A program made the translations under genes and the position numbers. This document shows positions 53,022 to 63,916 of a DNA stretch of 64,000 bases, piece by piece. A model generated the notes under the pieces. It was not told where the DNA came from and did not search any database. It saw only the letters and a program-made list of their open reading frames with translations. This DNA is from Verrucomicrobiota bacterium. Its GTDB lineage: Bacteria; Verrucomicrobiota; Verrucomicrobiia; Opitutales; Cerasicoccaceae. How positions within the stretch are numbered: the stretch's first letter is position 1; every line of letters begins with the position of its first letter. The stretch spans positions 72,302 to 136,301 of the forward strand of contig JBCBUK010000004.1 of NCBI GenBank assembly GCA_039818205.1, read 5' to 3'.

Positions 53022-53459
53022 ATGGAATTAACGGCGTTTACTGACTACTCTCTGCGAGTGCTTATGTTTTTGGCACAGAACGATGGTCGGCAGTCGTCGA
53101 TTGATGAGCTGGCCGAGTATTATGACCTGTCTCGCCACCATGTGGCCAAGATCACAGGCCGTTTGTCCAAGGCAGGCTTTTTGGTTTCCAGTCGTGGCAA
53201 ACACGGCGGAGTTGCATTGGCGATGGATGCAAAAGACATCAACTTGGCGGCGGTCGTTAAGCAGACCGAACCGCATTTTAACCTGGTTGAGTGTTTCGCG
53301 GACGGGAAAAATGGCTGCCGCTTGAGCGAATGTTGCCGCTTAAAAGGCATCCTGCTCGGTGCTCGTGCACAATTTTTTAGTTATCTGGAAAAATTTACCC
53401 TCGCGGATGCCGTTGCCGGAAAATGGCCAGCGCCAGCCGAGGTGTCCGGATCTAAGTGA
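53022..53459 (+). CDS. nsrR: Rrf2-family regulator, NsrR-like
   Basis: MELTAFTDYSLRVLMFL, S.HH..KI, RGKHGG, EPHFNLVECF....C.....CRLK (three Fe-S cysteines). Confidence 0.85.
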   Translation: MELTAFTDYSLRVLMFLAQNDGRQSSIDELAEYYDLSRHHVAKITGRLSKAGFLVSSRGKHGGVALAMDAKDINLAAVVKQTEPHFNLVECFADGKNGCRLSECCRLKGILLGARAQFFSYLEKFTLADAVAGKWPAPAEVSGSK

Positions 53460-53505
53460 TTACGGCGTTTCAGTCCGTATTACTGTTTGGGCATGAGTTT
53501 AATTC

Positions 53506-53520
53506 ATGCATCAAATGCAT
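53506..53520. promoter_or_regulatory. ATGCAT-N3-ATGCAT element, possible second Rrf2 site
   Basis: ATGCATcaaATGCAT in the AT-rich gap after nsrR. Confidence 0.4.
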
Positions 53521-53562
53521 TTTTTTGAATAGGAATTTTTCAAGAATCTTGGATCATTTTTA

Positions 53563-53587
53563 AAAGTGGCATTCTCGATGCTATTTT
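53563..53587. promoter_or_regulatory. Putative NsrR operator
   Basis: AAAGTGGCAT-tctcg-ATGCTATTTT: inverted repeat (8/10) with a CAT-N5-ATG core, 41 bp before the operon start. Confidence 0.55.
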
Positions 53588-53628
53588 GGGTTCGCAATTA
53601 TTCGACTTCACCCAAAACGACTAGCATC

Positions 53629-54234
53629 ATGAAAAAAACGATTATCGCTATTGCGCTTGGTATGGGCGCGATTGGTACCGCTGGGTTAATTACTGGCTGT
53701 TCTGATTCCGGGGCCAAGGAAGCTGCGGCTCCTCCCGGTGTTTCCTTCGAAAAACTCACCGACGCACTGCACATGGTGCTCGAGAACGACCGCACCGTTT
53801 ACACGCAGAAGGTCGTCAACCGTCTCGTCAAGGACGACAAAGTCATCAAAGCCAGTGAACACTGGACCGAAGACAAAGCCTTGCCACTTCCCGCTCAAAT
53901 GTTCCGCATGGGCGCTGAATTGACCGCCGAAAAGGACGCTTGGTTCAACTACTCATTGCAGTCGCTGTGGCCGATCAACAAGTCGAACGCTGCTGGCCAA
54001 ACTGCAATTGAGAAAGAAGGCCTTGAGTTTGTTGCGGCCAATGGTGGCTCGGCACCGTTCTATGGTAAAGAGACCTTGGGCGGCCAAGAGTATTTCACTG
54101 CGGTATACGCAGACGTTGCCGTTGCGCCGGTTTGTGTGACCTGCCACAACGAGCACAAGGATAGCCCAAAGACTGACTTCAAACTTGGAGATGTCATGGG
54201 TGGTGTTGTGATTCGCATCCCAATGGACTCCTAG
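53629..54234 (+). CDS. DUF3365/Tll0287-like monohaem c lipoprotein
   Basis: Lipobox ITGC, LPLPAQMFR, SLWPIN, CVTCH, DFKLGDVMGGVVIRIP. Start at ATG 53629. Confidence 0.85.
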   Translation: MKKTIIAIALGMGAIGTAGLITGCSDSGAKEAAAPPGVSFEKLTDALHMVLENDRTVYTQKVVNRLVKDDKVIKASEHWTEDKALPLPAQMFRMGAELTAEKDAWFNYSLQSLWPINKSNAAGQTAIEKEGLEFVAANGGSAPFYGKETLGGQEYFTAVYADVAVAPVCVTCHNEHKDSPKTDFKLGDVMGGVVIRIPMDS

Positions 54235-54244
54235 TGCCTGTGGT

Positions 54245-54682
54245 GTGAAAAATCTATTCTGGATCAACGCCAGTTTGGCAAGTGTTGCCCTGCTAGTGTC
54301 TGCCCTCCTGGGCGGATGCGGCGGGGACGACGCGTCTTCTGAGGCTGAGGTGAAGCGTCCTGACGCGACTCCCGCCAAAGCGGAACGTCTGGATCCCATG
54401 GCCTTGGTGCTGACTGATCCAAAATTAACTGAAGGGCGAGACATTTGGATTCCAAAGTGTGGGCAATGCCACCTCACCGGCTTAGGCGGTGCGCCGATTA
54501 TCGGCGATAAGGAAGCCTGGGCAGACCGCATCGCACAGGGTAACGAGACGTTGTATGATCACGCGATCAACGGATTCTCTGGGCCGAAGATGCTGATCAT
54601 GCCACCCAAAGGCGGTTTCTCCGAGTTGACCGATGACCAGGTCAAGCTTGCGGTGGACTTCGTCGTTTTCGCCAGCCAGTAG
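54245..54682 (+). CDS. Cytochrome c5-like lipoprotein
   Basis: Lipobox LGGC, CGQCH..G..GAP.IGD..AW..R, MPPKGG. Confidence 0.88.
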   Translation: MKNLFWINASLASVALLVSALLGGCGGDDASSEAEVKRPDATPAKAERLDPMALVLTDPKLTEGRDIWIPKCGQCHLTGLGGAPIIGDKEAWADRIAQGNETLYDHAINGFSGPKMLIMPPKGGFSELTDDQVKLAVDFVVFASQ

Positions 54683-54716
54683 CTGACCATTTAAAATCGA
54701 AAAGGAAAGAAATAAT

Positions 54717-55094
54717 ATGAGTACTCTATATGATAAGTTGGGTGGCGAACCAGCCATCGACGCCGCTGTCGACATTTTCTACGTCAAGGTTTTGGCGGAT
54801 GACCGTATCAAGCACTTCTTTGAAGGTATCGATATGGACAAAATGCGCGACCACCAGAAAAAGTTTCTCACCTTCGCCTTTGGCGGACCAAGCCGTTACT
54901 CCGGTCGCAGCATGGGCCCAGCACACGCGCGCCTGGTTGAAGAGATGGGTTTGAATGACACGCACTTTGACGCGGTTATCGAAAACCTTGGTGCAACCTT
55001 GGTTGAGTTGAATGTTCCCGAAGAACTGATCAACGAAGCCGCTGGTATCGCCCTTAGCGTACGGGATGACGTCCTTGGGCGCGCACCGGCTTAA
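54717..55094 (+). CDS. glbN: Group I truncated haemoglobin
   Basis: LYDKLGGEPAI.AAVD.FY.KVLAD, HQKKFL.FAFGGP..Y.GR.M..AH, HFDAV. Confidence 0.92.
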   Translation: MSTLYDKLGGEPAIDAAVDIFYVKVLADDRIKHFFEGIDMDKMRDHQKKFLTFAFGGPSRYSGRSMGPAHARLVEEMGLNDTHFDAVIENLGATLVELNVPEELINEAAGIALSVRDDVLGRAPA

Positions 55095-55108
55095 GGCGAA
55101 CAAACATC

Positions 55109-57082
55109 TTGGGTAAAACAACTCCCAGTTCTGACGCCGACCCGCTTGTCATTGTTGGCAATGGTATGGTGAGTTGGCGTCTTTGTCAGCAGCTGGTGGA
55201 CCGCGGGGTTCACCAGCAGCGCAAGATTGTTGTATTCGGTGAGGAACCACGGGCTGCCTATGACCGGGTTAACCTCACCAAAATGTTTGGCCTCACCGAT
55301 CCAGACGAACTGTTGTTGGCGAAGGCAGAGTGGTATGATAAGCACGCGATTCGCCGTGAATCTGATCGCCACATCCTTTCGATCGACCGGGAAGCGCAAA
55401 CGGTTCTCGACGACGGGGGAAACCTTACGTCCTTCTCGGACTGCGTGATTGCCACGGGTAGTCGCGCATTCGTGCCAGAGATTGATGGCGCTCGCCTACC
55501 GGGTGTCTTTGTTTATCGGACGATCGCAGACGTCGAAGCGATCAAAGAGGCCGCAACCTCGGCTAAGCGCGGATTAGTCGTCGGTGGCGGATTGTTGGGC
55601 CTGGAAGCGGCGGATGAGCTGCGCCGCCAGGGAATTGAGACCTGCATTGTGCAGAGCTCAAACTGTTTGATGAGCCGGCAGCTGAATCCGGATAGTGCGG
55701 GTTATCTCCTGCGTGAAGTCGCGAGTTTGGGCATGAGCGTTCGGCTCACCACGCGAACGGAATCGATCGAGCAAGTCGACTGTCACCTCCGGGTCAATTT
55801 TGACCAGGGTGAACCGATGGACGTCGACCTGGTGGTACTCGCGGCTGGCGTTCGCCCTCGCGATGAACTCGCCCACGATGCTGAGCTTCCGGTGGCCATT
55901 CGTGGCGGAATCATCATCGATGACAATTTACAAACTGAAGACCCCAACGTGTTTGCGATTGGGGAATGTGTCTCACACCACGGTGTCCTGTATGGCATCG
56001 TTGCCCCAGGTTACCAACAAGCGGACTGCTTGGCAGCTCGATTTGCCGGTGAGAATAAACAATACGAGGGCAGTGACCAATCGTGCCGGCTTAAGCTACT
56101 CGGCGTCGAGGTCAGCGTATTTGGAGACTATTTTGGAGAAGGCTTGACCCATGTCTACCGCGGAGCGGACAGCTACCGATCGATTGTCACCCAACGGGGT
56201 CGATTGATTGGGGCAACGGTGGTCGGTGAGTGGAAGCATACGACTCTAATCGAACGTGCCGTTCAGGAGCGGCGCCCACTGAGCCAGAAGCTCTGCGATG
56301 AGTTTGCACTGACCGGCGAGCTCTTCCGTGACACACAAGAAGAGACTGTGTTGTCGTGGCCCGATAGGGCCTTGATTTGTCATTGCACGAGCACGAATTG
56401 TGGTGTCTTGCGCGAGGCGGTTATGGGCGGTTGCGCGACGGTTAAAGAGCTATCGTCTAAGACGGGCGCCGGCAGCGTTTGTGGATCATGCATTCCACAG
56501 CTGGCGGAATTTGTTGGTGAAGATGGCCAAGCACTGGCTGCAGCGGGAGCGCCGAAGGGTAAACTGCTCCTTACGATTTCCGCGGTCATTGGTTTCATCA
56601 TGGTTCTGGTGTTTTTCTTTGTTCCAGGACTCCCGGCAGCCGAATCGGTCCAAACCTCCTACTATGAGTTTACTCAGATCTGGCAGGATTCGATAACGAA
56701 GCAAATTACGGGGTATACCCTGGCGGGGATTTCCGTGGTGGCCTTATTGTTGTCGGTACGGAAGCGCATCAAATTTATTTCCTTCGGGAACTATGGTTTC
56801 TGGCGGGCGGCCCATTCATGGCTCGGGGTTTCAACCATCGTGGTGTTGTTTTTCCATACGGGCCTACACTTGGGCGAGAATCTAAACCTCTGGCTGTTGA
56901 TGTGTTTCCTTGGATTGAATCTGGCCGGAGCAATGGCGGCAATTGCGGTGGCCACCGAGAAACGGTTCAGCGGATTCTGGGGAATGCGTCTGCGGCGATG
57001 GGCTCTTTCGTCACATTTGGTCTTTTTTATTCCGTACCCAGTGCTGCTTGGGTTCCACATCGCTAAGGTTTATCTCTACTGA
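55109..57082 (+). CDS. NirB-like NAD(P)H/FAD oxidoreductase + BFD-type [2Fe-2S] + C-terminal membrane domain
   Basis: VIVGNGMV, YDRVNL, VGGGLLGLEAA, FAIGEC, LKLLGV; ICHC...TGAGSVCGSC; then about five TM helices with His residues; no sirohaem domain. Start codon uncertain. Confidence 0.85.
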   Translation: MGKTTPSSDADPLVIVGNGMVSWRLCQQLVDRGVHQQRKIVVFGEEPRAAYDRVNLTKMFGLTDPDELLLAKAEWYDKHAIRRESDRHILSIDREAQTVLDDGGNLTSFSDCVIATGSRAFVPEIDGARLPGVFVYRTIADVEAIKEAATSAKRGLVVGGGLLGLEAADELRRQGIETCIVQSSNCLMSRQLNPDSAGYLLREVASLGMSVRLTTRTESIEQVDCHLRVNFDQGEPMDVDLVVLAAGVRPRDELAHDAELPVAIRGGIIIDDNLQTEDPNVFAIGECVSHHGVLYGIVAPGYQQADCLAARFAGENKQYEGSDQSCRLKLLGVEVSVFGDYFGEGLTHVYRGADSYRSIVTQRGRLIGATVVGEWKHTTLIERAVQERRPLSQKLCDEFALTGELFRDTQEETVLSWPDRALICHCTSTNCGVLREAVMGGCATVKELSSKTGAGSVCGSCIPQLAEFVGEDGQALAAAGAPKGKLLLTISAVIGFIMVLVFFFVPGLPAAESVQTSYYEFTQIWQDSITKQITGYTLAGISVVALLLSVRKRIKFISFGNYGFWRAAHSWLGVSTIVVLFFHTGLHLGENLNLWLLMCFLGLNLAGAMAAIAVATEKRFSGFWGMRLRRWALSSHLVFFIPYPVLLGFHIAKVYLY

Positions 57083-58431
57083 TGACGCGTCTGATTACAG
57101 TCAATCTGTTCTGGTTAACGATCGCTCTCGGTCTGTCGGTCTACCTCGGTTGGGCATTGTCTGGCGGGGCGGAGGATGTGGTGATGCCCGGCAAGACGAC
57201 GCATGGACACTATCAGATCGAACTCGATTGCGCGGCCTGCCATACGCCAAGCATGGGCGTTAAACAAGATTCCTGTAACGAGTGCCATGCCGAGGAGCTG
57301 GATCATGTCGACGATTCCCACCCAGTTATCAAGTTTAAGGATCCGCGGAATGCTGAGCGGCTGGAGAAACTGGACGCCCGTTATTGCATTACCTGTCACC
57401 GGGAACATCAACCGGAACTCACCAATACCATGGGCGTTACCTTGCCCAATGACTATTGCTATCATTGCCACCAGTCGATTGCGGAGGAACGCCCGACACA
57501 CGTGGGTCTCGGTTTCGAAACCTGTGCGACTTCAGGCTGCCACAATTTTCACGACAATACGGCGCTCTACGAACGCTTCATGGTTGAGCATTTGGATGAG
57601 CCAGACTTTAAGCCCAACCCGCAGCAACGCATTCGAGATTTCTATGAAGTGCACTATCCCGACCGAGGAGAGCCCTTGGAGTTCGAGCAGGCCAACATGT
57701 CAAGCAGCCTGAATGTAAGTCAGGATATCCTGCACGAGTGGTCTGTGACCTCACATGCGCAAGCGGGAGTTAACTGCCGGGACTGTCATGATGTTGCTAA
57801 CCCAGAAACGGGTGTTGTCAGTTGGGTGGATAAGCCGGATTACCATTCCTGCCAAAAGTGCCACGACTACGAGGTTAAGGGTTTTCTCGAAGGTCGGCAC
57901 GGCATGCGGTTGAATCAAGGACTAAGCCCGATGACGCCGGGAATGGCGCGTTTGCCGATGAAGGCTGAATCGCATCACAGTGAGCTTTCGTGTGTTTCCT
58001 GTCATAGCAGCCATGAGTTCAACACGAGTTTTGCGGCCGTGGATGCCTGTCTCCAATGTCACAACGATCAACACTCGTTGGCCTACAAGGAGTCACCGCA
58101 CTTTCAAGTGTTCCAGCAGGCCCAGGAAGGGATGCGTCCGATTGACGCTGGTGTGAGTTGTGCAACCTGCCACTTGCCACGAGTGGAGGTGTCCGAGTTC
58201 GGCGAAACCAAGGTCCGCGTTGATCACAACCAGAACAATAGTTTGCGTCCTAACGACAAAATGATCCGCGCCGCCTGTATTAACTGCCATGGTCTGCAGT
58301 TTACCCTCAATGCGCTGGCCGACGAGGAATTGATCAAGAATAACTTCCGTGGAGAGCCGACGCCGTTTGTCGAAAGTCTCGAGATGGCTAGGGAAGAAAA
58401 GATCCGAACGGAGGAGGCCAAACGTAGGTAG
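57082..58431 (+). CDS. Membrane-anchored multihaem cytochrome c (10 CxxCH + 1 CxxxxCH)
   Basis: CAACH, CNECH, CITCH, CYHCH, CATSGCH, CRDCH, CQKCH, CVSCH, CLQCH, CATCH, CINCH; N-terminal TM; TGATG coupling to the upstream gene. Confidence 0.92.
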   Translation: MTRLITVNLFWLTIALGLSVYLGWALSGGAEDVVMPGKTTHGHYQIELDCAACHTPSMGVKQDSCNECHAEELDHVDDSHPVIKFKDPRNAERLEKLDARYCITCHREHQPELTNTMGVTLPNDYCYHCHQSIAEERPTHVGLGFETCATSGCHNFHDNTALYERFMVEHLDEPDFKPNPQQRIRDFYEVHYPDRGEPLEFEQANMSSSLNVSQDILHEWSVTSHAQAGVNCRDCHDVANPETGVVSWVDKPDYHSCQKCHDYEVKGFLEGRHGMRLNQGLSPMTPGMARLPMKAESHHSELSCVSCHSSHEFNTSFAAVDACLQCHNDQHSLAYKESPHFQVFQQAQEGMRPIDAGVSCATCHLPRVEVSEFGETKVRVDHNQNNSLRPNDKMIRAACINCHGLQFTLNALADEELIKNNFRGEPTPFVESLEMAREEKIRTEEAKRR

Positions 58432-58503: not shown

Positions 58504-59877
58504 ATGCCAGCGGATATTCTTACGGGCTACAACGTCCACACCGATGCGGATCGGGCAAAGATGCTTGGTGCGATGGGGAAAGAAACCATCGCCGATCTTT
58601 TCACGGAAGTTCCTGAACATTTACGGGTTGATGGCCTGTTGGACTTGCCGCCAGCGATGACCGAGTGGCAGCTTGAGCGGCATATCCGCGAGCTGGCCGG
58701 TCGTAACGATACCACCATCGACCATTTGAGCTTTCTTGGTGGTGGCGCCTACGAACATCACGTTCCGGCCGTGATCGATGCTATTGCAACACGTGGAGAA
58801 TTCCTGACCGCGTATACGCCGTACCAACCGGAAATGGCTCAGGGTATCCTGCGTTTTCTCCATGATTTTCAAATCACCATGGGGCGTCTGCTTGGCTTGC
58901 CGGCGGTAAACTGTTCGGTCTACGATGGTGCAACCGCGCTTGCTGAGTCGGCGTGGATGACCTGTCGCATCACTGGAAAAAAGCATTTGCTCATCGCTGA
59001 ATCCATTTGGGTCGAGTATCAGACGGTGTTGGAAACCTATTTGCGGGGCCGTGGGGTCACGATTGAGGTCGTGCGTTCGGATGAGGAATCGGGTCAAATC
59101 GATTCGGACCATCTATCGGAATGCATCCAATCAGAAACGTCGGCTTTCCTTTTCCAGTCTCCCAACCGCTATGGAGTGGTGGAGAACATGACCCAGATTG
59201 GGAATATTTGCCATGATCAAGGGATCATGAATGTCATGGCGAGCTATCCGATTTTATTTGGCCTGAAAAAGAGTCCGGGAGACTCCGGCGTCGATATTGC
59301 CGTTTGCGAGGGACAGCCGCTCGGTATGCACTTGAACGCAGGTGGGCCTTATCTCGGTATCATCGCAACCAAGACTGAGTTTGAAGGGCACCTTCCGGGC
59401 CGTATCGTTGGGGAGTGCAATGACTTAAAAGGCGAAGACGCTTTGGCGCTGGTTAAGGAAGAACGAGAGCAACACGTCGCCCGGCATGAGGCAACTAGCC
59501 ATATTTGTTCGAATCAAGCAAACCTGGCGCTACGGGCTTTGATTTATCTTTCCCTATTGGGTGAGCGTGGGTTCCGCAACGTTGCTGAACTGAGTGCGCG
59601 GAAGGCACGTTATCTCGAGCAGCGATTAACCGCGGTCGAGGGCGTATCCCGCGTCTTTAGTGGACCGTTTTTCAATGAGTTTTTGTTGAACCTTCCGCGT
59701 CCAGCCGCCGATGTGCTGGCCACCTTACGAGAGCAGAAAATCTTTGGTGGTATACCGATGACTCAGCTCGATCCCGAGGCGCCAGACAATCAACTACTGA
59801 TCGCCGTCACCGAAACGAAGTCACAGGCCGACCTCGACCACATGGTTGAAGTGTTTGCCGCTGCCATTGAAATTTAA
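58504..59877 (+). CDS. gcvPA: Glycine dehydrogenase (decarboxylating) subunit 1-like
   Basis: FLGGGAYEH, EFLTAYTPYQPEMAQG, S.YDGATALAE, REQH..R..ATSHICSNQA, AVTETK. Confidence 0.88.
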   Translation: MPADILTGYNVHTDADRAKMLGAMGKETIADLFTEVPEHLRVDGLLDLPPAMTEWQLERHIRELAGRNDTTIDHLSFLGGGAYEHHVPAVIDAIATRGEFLTAYTPYQPEMAQGILRFLHDFQITMGRLLGLPAVNCSVYDGATALAESAWMTCRITGKKHLLIAESIWVEYQTVLETYLRGRGVTIEVVRSDEESGQIDSDHLSECIQSETSAFLFQSPNRYGVVENMTQIGNICHDQGIMNVMASYPILFGLKKSPGDSGVDIAVCEGQPLGMHLNAGGPYLGIIATKTEFEGHLPGRIVGECNDLKGEDALALVKEEREQHVARHEATSHICSNQANLALRALIYLSLLGERGFRNVAELSARKARYLEQRLTAVEGVSRVFSGPFFNEFLLNLPRPAADVLATLREQKIFGGIPMTQLDPEAPDNQLLIAVTETKSQADLDHMVEVFAAAIEI

Positions 59878-59894
59878 CTCTAAATATCCGAGCC

Positions 59895-61355
59895 ATGACA
59901 CCCGATTCCATCTACACCAAGTCTCGCCCCGGCGTCAGTGGAGCTTCAATTGTTGACCACGATTTTGCTCTGGGCGGTTCGCTCGATGACCTTTGTGCGC
60001 CCGAAGATTTACGGGACCAGCCAATTGGGTTACCCGAGCTTTCCGAGATCGATGTCGTCCGCCACTTCACGAATCTTAGTCGTCAGGCTCATGGAGTTGA
60101 CAATGGACCCTATCCGCTGGGTTCCTGCACAATGAAGTATAATCCAAAGCGGAACGACAAGTTAGCAATGCTTGATGGCTTTGGGAAAGCGCATCCTCAT
60201 CAACCGGCGGATACCTTGAGTGGCGTTTGGGATCTGCTTTGGAAACTGCAAAACGGCATCGCCGAGATCACCGGGATGGATGCGGTTACCTTACAGCCTG
60301 CCGCCGGAGCGCATGGTGAATTTACCGGCTTACTCGTGATGAAAAAGCATTTCGAGAAGCTTGGGGAGAAACGTAAAACAATTTTGATCCCCGATACGGC
60401 CCATGGCACGAATCCGGCAAGTGCTGCGATGTGCGGCTTTACCTGCCGAATTATTCCGACAAACGATAAGGGCTTGATGGACTTGGAATCCTTCGAGGAA
60501 CACCTCAACGATGATGTCGCCGGGTTAATGATTACCAACCCGTCGACGCTGGGGCTCTTCGAAGAGAATATCGAATTGATTGCGGAGAAGATCCACGACA
60601 ATGGCTCGTTGCTCTATTATGATGGCGCCAACTTGAATGCGATCATGGGGTTGATTCGTCCGGGAGACATGGGCTTTGATGTAATCCACATCAATACGCA
60701 CAAGACGCTTTCGACACCTCATGGAGGTGGTGGACCTGGAGCGGGTCCGTGCGGAGTGAAGAAGTTCCTCGAGCCGTATTTACCGACACCCGTTGTTCGC
60801 CCGGTTGATGGTATTCCCCAACCGGATTACGATCGCCCGGAAGCCGTCGGCAAAGTGAAAACGTTCTTTGGCCATATCGAGGTATTGATACGCGCTTATT
60901 GTTATATCTTGGCGAACGGGCCAATCGGTTTGAAGACGGCTACTGAGAACGCCGTTCTGAACGCCAACTATATGAAGCATCAACTAGGCGACCTATTACC
61001 GTCGGTCTTTCCACAGAACTGTATGCATGAGTGCTTGCTGCACGGTGGTTCGTTGGAGGTGCGGGGCGCGGACTTTGTGAAGCGACTGATTGATTTCGGC
61101 GTCCACCCACCGACTTTGGTGGGGGCTGGCTGCGTCCATTTCGCCGAAGAGTTTGATGAGGCCATGTTGATTGAACCTACCGAAACTGAGAGTGTTGTAT
61201 CGCTTGATTTTGTGATCGAGCAGTTTCGAAAAGTTGCTCGCGAAGCGGCAGTTGCCCCTTATATGATTGAGACCGCTCCACACCATGCGAGCACCGCGAA
61301 AGTCATTCACAACGAAGCTGCGTGGATGAGTATTTACGAAGAACCCGAAGACTAG
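59895..61355 (+). CDS. gcvPB: Glycine dehydrogenase (decarboxylating) subunit 2-like
   Basis: YPLGSCTMKYNP, LQPAAGAHGE, AHGTNPASA, NTHKTLSTPHGGGGPG (PLP lysine), IEPTETES. Confidence 0.9.
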   Translation: MTPDSIYTKSRPGVSGASIVDHDFALGGSLDDLCAPEDLRDQPIGLPELSEIDVVRHFTNLSRQAHGVDNGPYPLGSCTMKYNPKRNDKLAMLDGFGKAHPHQPADTLSGVWDLLWKLQNGIAEITGMDAVTLQPAAGAHGEFTGLLVMKKHFEKLGEKRKTILIPDTAHGTNPASAAMCGFTCRIIPTNDKGLMDLESFEEHLNDDVAGLMITNPSTLGLFEENIELIAEKIHDNGSLLYYDGANLNAIMGLIRPGDMGFDVIHINTHKTLSTPHGGGGPGAGPCGVKKFLEPYLPTPVVRPVDGIPQPDYDRPEAVGKVKTFFGHIEVLIRAYCYILANGPIGLKTATENAVLNANYMKHQLGDLLPSVFPQNCMHECLLHGGSLEVRGADFVKRLIDFGVHPPTLVGAGCVHFAEEFDEAMLIEPTETESVVSLDFVIEQFRKVAREAAVAPYMIETAPHHASTAKVIHNEAAWMSIYEEPED

Positions 61356-61361
61356 AGCGTC

Positions 61362-61796
61362 ATGGAAATTCCACCCTTTGAACCACGAAAAGCGAGAATC
61401 CTCGTTGTTGAAGACGTTAAGATGATGCGGGTTATGTTGGCCCGTCACCTCGACCAAGTGGGCTATGAATACCATCATGAGGTTGAGAATGGCCAGGAAG
61501 CCTTGGACTACATTGCGGAGAATCCAGTCGATCTGATTCTGCTCGATATCCAAATGCCGGTATTGGATGGCTACGAAACCTTAAAGGCTATCAAGGCCGA
61601 CCCACGGTATCAGAACATTGCGGTTATCATGGTTACCGCCGTAGATAATATTGAAAGCGTGGCTAAATGCATTCAAGATGGGGCTGACGATTATATGCCA
61701 AAGCTGTTTAATCCGATTCTACTCCCGGCCAAAATCGATACTTCCCTAGAGCTTCGCCACCTGAGGAAGGTTGTTGCCGACGCGAGTGCATCTTAA
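61362..61796 (+). CDS. Single-domain response regulator (receiver)
   Basis: ILVVED, DLILLDIQMP.LDG, MVTA, GADDYMPK. Confidence 0.9.
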   Translation: MEIPPFEPRKARILVVEDVKMMRVMLARHLDQVGYEYHHEVENGQEALDYIAENPVDLILLDIQMPVLDGYETLKAIKADPRYQNIAVIMVTAVDNIESVAKCIQDGADDYMPKLFNPILLPAKIDTSLELRHLRKVVADASAS

Positions 61797-63916
61797 TGAA
61801 GTTGCCTCAAATCCAGTTTCGCAGCCTACGAACGCAGATCATTGTTTGTGTCGCCTTGCCTGTTATCGCGACGATCGTTGCGCTGTCGCTGATTCTACTG
61901 ACGGAATTCTATGCCCAGCTGAAGAAGGGCGCGCTGACCAACATCCGGTTGACTGCTGAGCAAGCAGCCGAAGAAATCGAGAAATCCAATTTGGAGTCGA
62001 TTACCTTTCCGAAGACTATGGCGTTGGCGCAGAAGCATGGTTTGTTTGGTGACCGCACGGCATCGGTTCGATACGCCGAGGAAATGTTGCGCATTCACCC
62101 ACAGTTGACCGGGGCCTACTTCGGTTATGAACCAAACGCCGATGAGCAGGATGCGGAATTCTTGGCCGCCGTGAAACCCTCCGATGCAGGCGCTCTCGAT
62201 GAAGATGGCCGGTTCTTACCTTACTGGTATCGCGATCACGAAGATGATAGCAAGATTCTGCTCACGCCCCTGGTCGACATGGAGACCAGCTATTATTACC
62301 AGGGAGCAAAGAATCGTGCGCTGGGTCAATCGGAGTCGAAGAATATTAAAATGGCTGAGGACAAAGAACTGAGTAAATATTACTCGGACAAAGAGCTGCA
62401 GATGCAAATGAATGACGCTGCTAACTACTTAGCGATGATTACTGAACCCTACGTCTACGAGGGGAAATTAATCGTTGAGCAAACCTATCCGATCATCATC
62501 GATGGCGAGTTTAAGGGCATTGCTGGTGTCGACCGTGCGCTGACTTTTCTGCAGGAATATTTGGAAGCACTGAAACCCTTTGAGACGGCCGAGTTTGTTT
62601 TAATTAGTCGGCGGGGACGAGTAATTGCCGCCACGGTGAATGAGGATTGGAAAACGAAACTCTTCGAGGATTTGCCGATCGGAGATACCTTGCTCGAGTT
62701 TTATAAGATTCGTGGTAACTCAGCGGTGGAGCTCGTCAAAGGTCCCGATGGTGTCGAACGCTTTTATGATTCAGTAAAGGTCCCCACAGGCAATTGGACC
62801 CTCGTGATGAGCGTTGAGAAATCCGAGATTTATGCGCCCTTGATCCTACGGTTGACGTTCATGATTGTGGTAACTGGCATCGGCCTTTTTGTTACGTTAT
62901 ACATCATGGTTTGGCTGGCTAATTCCATCTCGGCACGCCTATCCAATGCGGCGTCGATGGCGAGCCGTGTGGCCGATGGGGACTTGACCGGCAGTATCGA
63001 TGATCAATCGATTGACGAGACCGGCGTTTTGATGCGGGCCATTAAAGCCATGATCAACAATTTGAATCTGTTGATCGGCCAGGTGAAGGGTTCAAGTATT
63101 CAGCTGACTTCGACTGCCACGGCGATTTCATCAAATGCGAAAGCGCAAGAGGTCGCCGTTTGCGAGTTTGAAACATCGACCAATTCCATTGCAGCAGCCG
63201 TGAAAGAAATTTCGACGACCTCGCAGGAGCTTTCAAACACAATGAAAAACGTGACGGCGAAGGCAGATGATACGGCCTCGTTGGCCGATTCTGGGCGTCG
63301 TAGTTTGGAAGAAATGGAAGAGGTGATGGGGAATCTTGCGGAAGCCAACGATGCGATCTCGGAGAAACTCTCGGTCATCAGTGAACGAGCAAATAACGTC
63401 AACCGCATCATCACGACGATCACCACGGTGGCTGATCAGACAAATTTGCTTTCCCTGAATGCCGCAATTGAGGCCGAGAAAGCTGGAGAATACGGCCTTG
63501 GTTTTTCCGTTGTTGCCCGGGAAATTCGCCGCCTGTCAGACCAGACAGCCGTGGCGACTTTAGACATCGAGCAGATGATTACCGAAATGCAGACCTCGGT
63601 CGCCAGTGGAGTGGGGGAGATGGACTCGTTTAGTTCCAAAATGAAACAGAGCGTAACCGGTGTTCAGGAAGTGAGTCGTCAGTTGGTGACAATTATCAAG
63701 CATGTGCAAGAGCTCACCAAGCAGTTTGAATCGGTGCGTCAGGGCATGGATACCCAATCGGTCGGGGCCAAGCATATCGATGAAGCGATGGTCCAACTAA
63801 AGGACGCTGCACAGTCAACGACCCAATCAATTTATGGGTTCAATCGTGCGACGCATGACCTGCAGGATTCGGTCAAGGTGCTCCGCAACGAGGTTGATAA
63901 ATTTAACATGAGTTAG
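61796..63916 (+). CDS. Methyl-accepting chemotaxis protein, WspA-like signalling domain, with Cache-like sensor and HAMP
   Basis: TM1 - periplasmic domain (YFGYEPNA, FLPYW, ITEPY..E, GIAGVD) - TM2 - HAMP (DETG.L) - VADQTNLLSLNAAIEAEKAGEYG.GF.VVA.EIRRL.DQT; TAATG coupling. Confidence 0.92.
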   Translation: MKLPQIQFRSLRTQIIVCVALPVIATIVALSLILLTEFYAQLKKGALTNIRLTAEQAAEEIEKSNLESITFPKTMALAQKHGLFGDRTASVRYAEEMLRIHPQLTGAYFGYEPNADEQDAEFLAAVKPSDAGALDEDGRFLPYWYRDHEDDSKILLTPLVDMETSYYYQGAKNRALGQSESKNIKMAEDKELSKYYSDKELQMQMNDAANYLAMITEPYVYEGKLIVEQTYPIIIDGEFKGIAGVDRALTFLQEYLEALKPFETAEFVLISRRGRVIAATVNEDWKTKLFEDLPIGDTLLEFYKIRGNSAVELVKGPDGVERFYDSVKVPTGNWTLVMSVEKSEIYAPLILRLTFMIVVTGIGLFVTLYIMVWLANSISARLSNAASMASRVADGDLTGSIDDQSIDETGVLMRAIKAMINNLNLLIGQVKGSSIQLTSTATAISSNAKAQEVAVCEFETSTNSIAAAVKEISTTSQELSNTMKNVTAKADDTASLADSGRRSLEEMEEVMGNLAEANDAISEKLSVISERANNVNRIITTITTVADQTNLLSLNAAIEAEKAGEYGLGFSVVAREIRRLSDQTAVATLDIEQMITEMQTSVASGVGEMDSFSSKMKQSVTGVQEVSRQLVTIIKHVQELTKQFESVRQGMDTQSVGAKHIDEAMVQLKDAAQSTTQSIYGFNRATHDLQDSVKVLRNEVDKFNMS

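Follow-up and report, generated by a model that had tools for sequence, protein, structure and literature searches.

The stretch analysed here, 64,000 nucleotides of contig JBCBUK010000004.1 from a member of the Verrucomicrobiota family Cerasicoccaceae (the window), carries between positions 53,022 and 58,431 an operon composed of an rrf2 regulatory gene and five co-oriented redox genes. We propose that this operon encodes a module, induced by nitrogen limitation and gated by nitric oxide (NO), which removes and probably salvages NO, or a related nitrogen oxide, during the assimilation of nitrate and nitrite; on the sequence evidence we hold this to be probably, though by no means securely, the right reading. 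Relatives of its cytochrome were found in 357 genomes, of which the best 80 loci were kept, and every neighbourhood count given below rests on these 80. Judged by gene content, the conserved core of the module is a four-histidine membrane domain, an 11-haem cytochrome c and a DUF3365 lipoprotein, with cytochrome c5 and NsrR as accessories. As read from the DNA, control rests mainly with a sigma-54 promoter and a probable nitrogen-regulon enhancer, to which NsrR adds an overlay in 15 of the loci, so that the control logic would likely be nitrogen shortage AND NO.

Gene content and conservation of the operon

Six open reading frames (ORFs) lie at the coordinates given for them in a preliminary description of this DNA, and family scans returned the gene families that it had named. 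The spacer between rrf2 and the first of the five genes is 169 bp long, and the gaps among the five, again as described, are 10, 34, 14 and -1 bp. The features are as follows.

53022..53459, + strand: NsrR-type Rrf2 repressor (Asp8, Arg12, Cys91/99/105), from family scans, alignment and a structure-database match; ligands as in S. coelicolor NsrR (available text of PMC5411485)
53491..53509, no strand: palindromic "N-box" of the ATGAAT-N3-ATTCAT type, probable enhancer for an NtrC-like sigma-54 activator, common to nitrogen-assimilation promoters
53567..53582, + strand: sigma-54-type -24/-12 promoter, GG and GC 12 apart; motif in 16/17 loci of the same gene order, rpoN in the genome
53564..53586, no strand: NsrR-like 23-bp imperfect palindrome, probable operator by leave-one-out scores, overlapping the sigma-54 promoter
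53629..54234, + strand: DUF3365/Tll0287-like (sCache_heme) monohaem c lipoprotein with invariant Met91 and no distal Cys
54245..54682, + strand: class I monohaem cytochrome c (c5-like) lipoprotein, accessory, in 33/80 loci
54717..55094, + strand: group I truncated globin (GlbN-like), taking the place of the single-domain globin of other lineages
55109..57082, + strand: flavin adenine dinucleotide (FAD)/NAD(P)H diaphorase, BFD [2Fe-2S] domain and a membrane domain of five helices (56549-57079) whose four invariant His form two pairs, each with a spacing of 14; sirohaem domain absent
57082..58431, + strand: membrane-anchored 11-haem cytochrome c with an N-terminal pentahaem wire and a C-terminal hexahaem domain resembling hydroxylamine oxidoreductase (HAO), without the catalytic haem motif; invariant Asp329/His331/Met394

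Among named relatives, those nearest are Cerasicoccus species (76% identity), which places the window in the Opitutales. By tblastn, the membrane domain was present in 79 of the 80 loci, DUF3365 in 78 and the soluble diaphorase in 74, while c5 was present in 33, rrf2 in 15 and the truncated globin in 9. The module genes are co-conserved far beyond chance, and the core recurs in many phyla. What had been put forward as a five-gene unit with Rrf2 holds in part, in that the three-part core is widespread and the full set is a lineage-specific form of it. Four loci (L039, L045, L052 and L078) encode the four-histidine membrane domain as a separate protein of 173–177 amino acids, together with the cytochrome and DUF3365, and for this reason we take these three components to be the minimal unit.

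Presence of the module is patchy, with full-length matches in 2 of 5 same-genus genomes and in 2 of 40 relatives, and a plasmid collection yielded no match. An eroded copy (L012:5818-9323) has an internally shortened diaphorase (426 amino acids) and lacks c5, globin, rrf2 and the sigma-54 motif. Genes for ResB/CcsA cytochrome c maturation lie within or beside the operon in L005, L006, L007, L011 and L012, and a PP2C-kinase fusion protein and a NarK-like transporter adjoin the module in L034, L043, L046, L063 and L070. Apparent fusions of DUF3365 to the cytochrome, to c5 and to the diaphorase were rejected, as their ragged junctions drop haem 11 or helices and most are single records.

Proposed electron path from the flavoprotein to the cytochrome

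The Pyr_redox_2 and Fer2_BFD domains of the flavoprotein cover only positions 1–465 of the 794 in the NirB model and are followed by the membrane domain; the protein reaches 413 bits on TIGR02374 (NirB) against a cut-off of 578, and has no PF01077. These N-terminal FAD/NAD(P)H and BFD domains are ~36% identical to the genome's own NirB, but in the module a four-histidine membrane domain replaces the sirohaem/[4Fe-4S] half, and there is no NirD. In the structure model (predicted local distance difference test score 89.9), fold searches recognised a ferredoxin/rubredoxin-reductase fold. Cys424/426/458/461 of the BFD domain are invariant in 64 of 64 sequences, as are His569/583 and His636/650, which sit on predicted helices of the five that span the membrane; both sets support the trans-membrane chain proposed earlier. 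Position 182 holds an acidic residue typical of NADH preference in 47 of the 64, and Gln in the window protein.

Four conserved histidines on two helices are characteristic of ferric-reductase-like proteins and cytochrome b561, and the natural reading of the predicted helices would place one haem b near each membrane face. Profiles for these families remained below cut-off (best E 0.0002–0.005; DUF4405 in 14/24, PF01292 in 3/24 and PF01794 in 1/24), no solved relative of the membrane domain was found by sequence, and whole-protein fold searches returned only the reductase domain. In Fre-MsrQ-MsrP and in exporters of the NOX/ferric-reductase type, a cytoplasmic NAD(P)H flavoprotein feeds a di-haem b membrane carrier and, through it, a periplasmic acceptor. 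The module has the same plan of flavoprotein, putative membrane b haems and outside acceptor, but its diaphorase is of the glutathione-reductase family and fused to the carrier, its acceptor is a c-type haem chain, and the Pfam likeness is weak.

The cytochrome begins with a membrane helix and carries 10 CxxCH motifs and one CxxxxCH, making 11 haems. Five spare invariant histidines accompany the first five haems, and six spare histidines plus Met394 the last six. The CxxCK haem of NrfA and octahaem nitrite reductase is absent, all 11 motifs ending in His, and PRK11125 gave 16.5 bits against 595. Both fold searches ranked HAO-family proteins first, for residues 203–424 only and with middling scores (E 0.004; Z ~7.3, root-mean-square deviation 4.0, 197 residues aligned). 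With the reductive HAO Kustc0458 (PDB 6h5l; PMC8042395), the C-terminal six haems appear to share fold and haem order, and there is apparent correspondence of an Asp-His motif following haem 6 and of a Tyr..Ser..His motif preceding haem 7; the window cytochrome differs in its eleven haems, its N-terminal membrane anchor, the missing motif for catalytic haem 4 and an identity of only ~18–22%.

In local alignments Cys304 and Cys323 correspond to haems 5 and 6 of HAO, while His331 meets its Asp-His motif and His340 the ligand that follows. The numbering of Asp267/His268 follows the available text of PMC3814345. His331 aligns with the DH motif of 6h5l with the spacing off by one and in a weak local alignment (E 0.009). 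HAO proteins have eight haems, of which catalytic haem 4 is covalently bound and five-coordinate. The motif for this haem was absent from 71 of 71 aligned sequences: no CxxCH precedes Cys304, the equivalent of haem 5, and just 14 of the 71 have His at position 298, while Asp329, His331 and Met394 are invariant in all of them. Either His331 would ligate one of the cytochrome's own haems, making the domain a pure wire, or Met394 would do so, leaving His331 opposite a vacant site available to a haem from a partner protein.

Haem lipoproteins and the globin slot

The DUF3365 protein matches PF11845 at 68.9 bits (cut-off 24.1) with one CxxCH insertion, which makes it a member of the sCache_heme family; no solved relative was found by sequence. 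As in the sCache_heme/Tll0287 family, to which the Geobacter proteins GSU0582 and GSU0935 belong (PMC8396549, available text), it is a stand-alone periplasmic Cache domain with one c haem; it differs in having no distal Cys and a fixed gene context. Stand-alone members of the family, according to the available part of a preprint, lack such a context with respect to signalling genes; the same source describes one of them as redox-like, with a potential of +123 mV, finds that it binds NO weakly and regards its function as open (10.64898/2026.02.01.703092). The invariant Met91 precedes the haem His by 82 residues. This resembles the Met60/His144 pair of GSU0935, in which Met60 is a labile haem ligand that NO can displace (PMC8396549, as far as available), the likeness being an analogy of spacing and not an alignment. 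Elsewhere, tandem double-DUF3365 proteins of ~400 amino acids were seen (P0151-P0156), one cluster having 98 members. The c5-like protein belongs to the class I cytochromes c (PF13442) and contains a single CxxCH.

The globin of 125 amino acids matches PF01152, and its closest solved relatives are cyanoglobins and group 1 truncated haemoglobins (E 5e-41); the family match and the likeness to trHbN/GlbN structures place it among the group I truncated haemoglobins. ORF clustering found a single-domain globin (PF00042, one representative checked) in 51 of the 80 loci and a truncated globin in 9, so that 60 carry a globin of one of two unrelated folds, never both in one locus. This frequency supports the link to NO drawn in the preliminary description. 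A quick tree was built from 74 cytochromes, those of 73 loci whose ORFs are intact and that of the window. In it, a branch with a Shimodaira–Hasegawa-like approximate likelihood-ratio support of 98 has the truncated-globin loci on one side, nested among Verrucomicrobiota with single-domain globins which share their gene order, DUF3365-c5-globin-diaphorase-cytochrome. The globin types were exchanged once, in the same slot of the operon. Because unrelated folds replaced each other there, it appears to be globin chemistry that is selected for. NO resistance conferred by truncated globins has precedent, and assigning an NO dioxygenase role requires that enzymatic turnover be shown (PMC3820574, available text).

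A probable nitrogen-regulon promoter with a putative NsrR overlay

Alignment of 14 intergenic regions revealed two conserved elements, the N-box upstream, present in 11 of 13 relatives, and the palindrome at 53564–53586 downstream. The operator-like inverted repeat noted in the earlier account thus resolves into two conserved repeats, of which that at 53491–53509 is not an NsrR site while that at 53564–53586 is NsrR-like; another repeat (ATGCAT-N3-ATGCAT near 53506–53520) was discarded as not conserved. The element at 53567–53582 fits the sigma-54 -24/-12 (GG/GC) consensus. The motif occurs in 16 of the 17 loci that share the order of genes in the window, the background being 0.028 per 260 nt, and, across phyla, before the leading gene in 32 of the 61 loci with enough upstream DNA, compared with 10.6% of random windows. 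The window genome has rpoN and five activator-like genes, which together with the GG/GC spacing and the upstream palindrome complete the make-up of a sigma-54 promoter with enhancer. Since a sigma-54 promoter lies downstream of it and rpoN and activators are present, the N-box is best read as a candidate NtrC-like enhancer.

When the window genome was scanned with an N-box matrix built without the window sequence, the nitrate ATP-binding cassette (ABC) operon ranked first, an unknown gene second and the window operon third, and lower ranks went to a porin–molybdenum-cofactor operon, a GlnII-like glutamine synthetase, a urtA-formamidase operon, one site inside a gene and another urtA operon; the site at NirB scores 15.8. 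N-box and sigma-54 promoter occur in the same layout at nrtA, glnII-like, both urtA operons and one amtB, and nearly so at porin and nirB. Common to the nitrate, urea, glutamine synthetase and NirB promoters, the palindrome ahead of the sigma-54 promoter suggests that the operon belongs to a nitrogen-limitation regulon. The N-box is also found before nrtA in G005, and in G002, which is without the module. Seven sites in the window genome (G000) lie before operons for nitrate ABC-NasA-NirA, GlnII-like, porin-moe, two urea/amide ABC systems, NirB and amtB:

C9:41110, C3:35882, C3:266219, C15:102036, C5:295217, C5:143723, C3:167301: nitrogen-regulon sites, palindrome 60–210 bp upstream of sigma-54-type promoters

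A literature search, in which subscription journals were mostly uncovered, found no paper on this motif. A candidate activator for the N-box, a receiver protein with a degenerate sigma-54-interaction AAA domain, is encoded upstream of amtB-glnK (L095:2949-4202, G000:C8). Upstream of a urtA operon, at a contig end (G000:C5:294187-296034), two near-identical outer-membrane protein genes lie in tandem, possibly a recent duplication or an assembly repeat. A scan for sigma-70 promoters and terminators gave counts at chance level.

The Rrf2 protein (PF02082) has NsrR as its best NCBIfam match, at 115.6 bits and below the cut-off of 182; the RirA model gave 111.5 bits against 193. Asp8, Arg12 and the three cysteines are invariant in 15 of 15 adjacent Rrf2 proteins, and the best PDB match is S. 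coelicolor NsrR, which aligns at these residues (ligand set from the available text of PMC5411485); the regulator is accordingly supported as NsrR-type, as had been claimed. Leave-one-out scores of the downstream palindrome were 13–31 in 13 of 13 loci with rrf2 next to the operon and did not exceed 4.9 in any of the 4 loci that lack it there. By these scores the NsrR-like overlay would exist only where nsrR adjoins the operon (13/13 versus 0/4). In L013-L015 the palindrome sits apart from the sigma-54 promoter, and in L016/L017 the site is near-consensus. An NsrR operator of 23 bp has been described (PMC9338935, available text). A scan of the whole genome with the NsrR-like matrix gave no second credible target.

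Association with nitrate assimilation

Nitrate-related or porin genes lie within 37 of the 80 loci (NrtA-type ABC 26, porin 13, NasT 10, NasA 9, NarK-like 6), all of them outside L001-L018. Where the operon stands apart from nitrate genes, as in the window, its promoter is of the same type as theirs, N-box plus sigma-54. A search for NirA, NirB and NasA covered 50 module genomes from the 80: NirB and/or NirA was found in 40 (NirB in 23, strong NirA in 20, one weaker match beside NasA), and a NasA-like match in 47, with a query that also catches formate dehydrogenases. Among 41 relatives, which as kin are not independent, NirA occurs in 16, and the 3 with NirB are those that carry the module. 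The window genome encodes ABC-NasA-NirA in a cluster of its own and, in addition, a complete NirB-NirD fusion; because it keeps both, the module appears to be an addition to nitrite reduction and not a substitute for it. Searches of this genome (99.97% complete) did not turn up an Hmp-type globin, Hcp, a flavodiiron protein, Nor or any PF00042. Of its three COX1-family genes one was read as a cbb3 oxidase, the other two being judged by length and context only.

A close parallel is the Bradyrhizobium operon narK-bjgb-flp-nasC, in which a single-domain globin and a flavoprotein within a NasST-controlled nitrate operon cope with NO (PMC4724949, available text). It shares with the module a separate globin and an NAD(P)H flavoprotein beside nitrate assimilation; relatives of the module mostly have the same kind of globin, several with NasT. 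Unlike the module, the Bradyrhizobium system has no membrane haem domain, multihaem cytochrome or DUF3365, and the window differs from it in its truncated globin and its predicted control by sigma-54 and NsrR. As a side observation, a DmsB/DmsC-like 4Fe-4S membrane protein is encoded directly before assimilatory NasA in L092:5400-6953 (G000:C9), L066, L079 and L080, which suggests quinol-linked assimilatory nitrate reduction in these lineages.

Proposed function and alternatives

We envisage that under nitrogen shortage an NtrC-like activator at the N-box would fire the sigma-54 promoter, which NsrR would block until NO destroyed its cluster. By established potentials, electron flow outward from NAD(P)H is downhill and flow from c-type haems to NAD+ uphill. 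Electrons would pass from NAD(P)H through FAD, [2Fe-2S] and two membrane b haems to the 11 c haems, and the chain would end at the DUF3365 haem or the HAO-like domain, with reduction of a nitrogen oxide in the periplasm; this step is modelled on reductive HAO, which reduces nitrite, NO and hydroxylamine (PMC8042395, available text). The same diaphorase would re-reduce the cytoplasmic globin, and the globin would dioxygenate NO to nitrate, which NasA, NirA and NirB could assimilate, as modelled on Bjgb-Flp and the truncated-globin precedents. The c5 protein would be an optional outlet or shuttle.

A bolder version, possible though unlikely, is a split HAO-type enzyme in which the 11-haem scaffold, having lost a catalytic haem of its own, contributes the distal Asp/His and the Cache-fold DUF3365, with its labile Met ligand, supplies the catalytic haem in trans; with electrons coming directly from cytoplasmic NADH by way of the fused membrane b haems, NO or hydroxylamine would become ammonium in the periplasm, and the globin would recycle NO to nitrate with O2.

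Several observations weigh against NO removal as the function. Neither NirA nor NirB was found in 10 of the 50 module genomes, and three of these have only membrane domain, cytochrome and DUF3365, without diaphorase, globin or NasA. The three Dadabacteria-type genomes, in which the membrane domain is separate, gave no match to NasA, NirA or NirB; because such minimal-unit genomes lack nitrate genes, the core can serve another role, and the Dadabacteria-type minimal unit likely has another electron donor and role. Twenty of the 80 loci have no globin, some of them being truncated by contig ends, and neither NirK nor NirS exceeded the cut-off in the window genome as a strong source of NO. NO binding is weak in the single stand-alone DUF3365 protein that has been studied (10.64898/2026.02.01.703092, available text), and the 11 spare invariant histidines of the cytochrome equal its 11 haems, as befits a pure wire without an active site. 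N-box scores are weak near the nitrate genes of several more distant relatives, and the counts of N-box sites, weak when taken alone, are 10 at 16 bits or above versus 8.3 in shuffled matrices, and 7 versus 2.6 at 18 bits. By hand count, the window site matches the published NsrR operator gATGyAT-N5-ATrCATc at 9 of 14 positions (PMC1274295, available text), and the nrtA sigma-54 promoter fits the same consensus hardly less well (8/14), the near-equality arising because NsrR and sigma-54 motifs resemble each other.

The ligand count and the weak NO binding would also suit an electron valve or oxygen scavenger, in which electrons from NADH avoid quinone and reach the cbb3 oxidase by way of the wire and c5 while the globin buffers O2, protecting or balancing the nitrate and nitrite reductases under nitrogen limitation without periplasmic turnover of nitrogen oxides. 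An all-six-coordinate wire accords with the histidine count, the stand-alone sCache_heme protein is redox-like at +123 mV (preprint, available text), and the window genome has both c5 and a cbb3 oxidase. However, c5 is absent from 47 of the 80 loci, NsrR control in 15 loci points to NO, and the invariant polar motifs around Asp329/His331 and His382-Met394 go beyond the needs of a wire. We regard this function as unlikely.

The regulon shared with urea and formamide uptake and with porins, the porin (13/80) and NrtA-type ABC genes (26/80) beside the module and its patchy presence (2 of 5 same-genus genomes) could be explained if the module served an unusual nitrogen source, its periplasmic part acting on an N-oxide, nitro, oxime or hydroxylamine compound brought in from outside and reducing or cleaving it to ammonium or nitrite, and the globin and NsrR handling the NO released. 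No substrate-specific enzyme co-occurs in the loci, however, and the NasT linkage in 10 of them points to nitrate or nitrite, so that we think this quite unlikely.

A sirohaem-independent periplasmic nitrite reductase replacing NirA and NirB in assimilation, to which the NirB-like front end, the placement in nitrate operons and a weak sequence likeness to NrfA and octahaem nitrite reductase haems might point, is very unlikely, given that NirB and/or NirA is kept in 40 of 50 module genomes and both in the window genome, that there is no CxxCK haem and that the operon itself includes full NirBD at some loci. Least likely of all is reverse flow, in which the HAO-like domain would oxidise hydroxylamine or some other periplasmic substrate and electrons would pass inward to the globin and NAD+, for although the C-terminal fold is closest to HAO (at a middling score), the catalytic haem motif is missing in 71 of 71 sequences and transfer from c-type haems to NAD+ is uphill, with +123 mV for the DUF3365 relative already mentioned.

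The module falls outside NirB, NrfA, HAO and Hmp, the last because the window globin is separate and not fused to an FNR-type reductase, yet would work like pieces of each. The expectation that it would match no canonical module and no characterised system was borne out, the literature search (subscription journals mostly uncovered) having found no description of the operon. What the window appears to add is the globin swap, the promoter combining sigma-54, N-box and NsrR, and the missing catalytic haem.

Neighbouring genes

Downstream of the operon (58504–63916) lie gcvPA-gcvPB, without gcvT or gcvH alongside, and then genes for a receiver protein and a methyl-accepting chemotaxis protein; a second gcvPA copy is on C19 of the window genome. 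As gcvPA was detected in 0 of the 80 loci, gcvPA/PB was rejected as part of the module.

Significance

A putative quinone-independent haem chain of this make-up from NAD(P)H to the periplasm occurs in at least 357 species-level genomes, many of them marine. The analysis assigns a concrete candidate partner to stand-alone DUF3365 proteins and a putative native electron donor to single-domain and truncated globins, and it brings to light in Opitutales a nitrogen regulon motif open to direct testing. If NO salvage is its function, the module would provide microbes that assimilate nitrate with an unrecognised sink for NO and source of nitrogen, separate from Hmp, Nor, NorVW, Hcp and NrfA; and were the split HAO-type enzyme to prove true, it would amount to a dedicated route for assimilating NO nitrogen in nitrogen-starved heterotrophs of many phyla.

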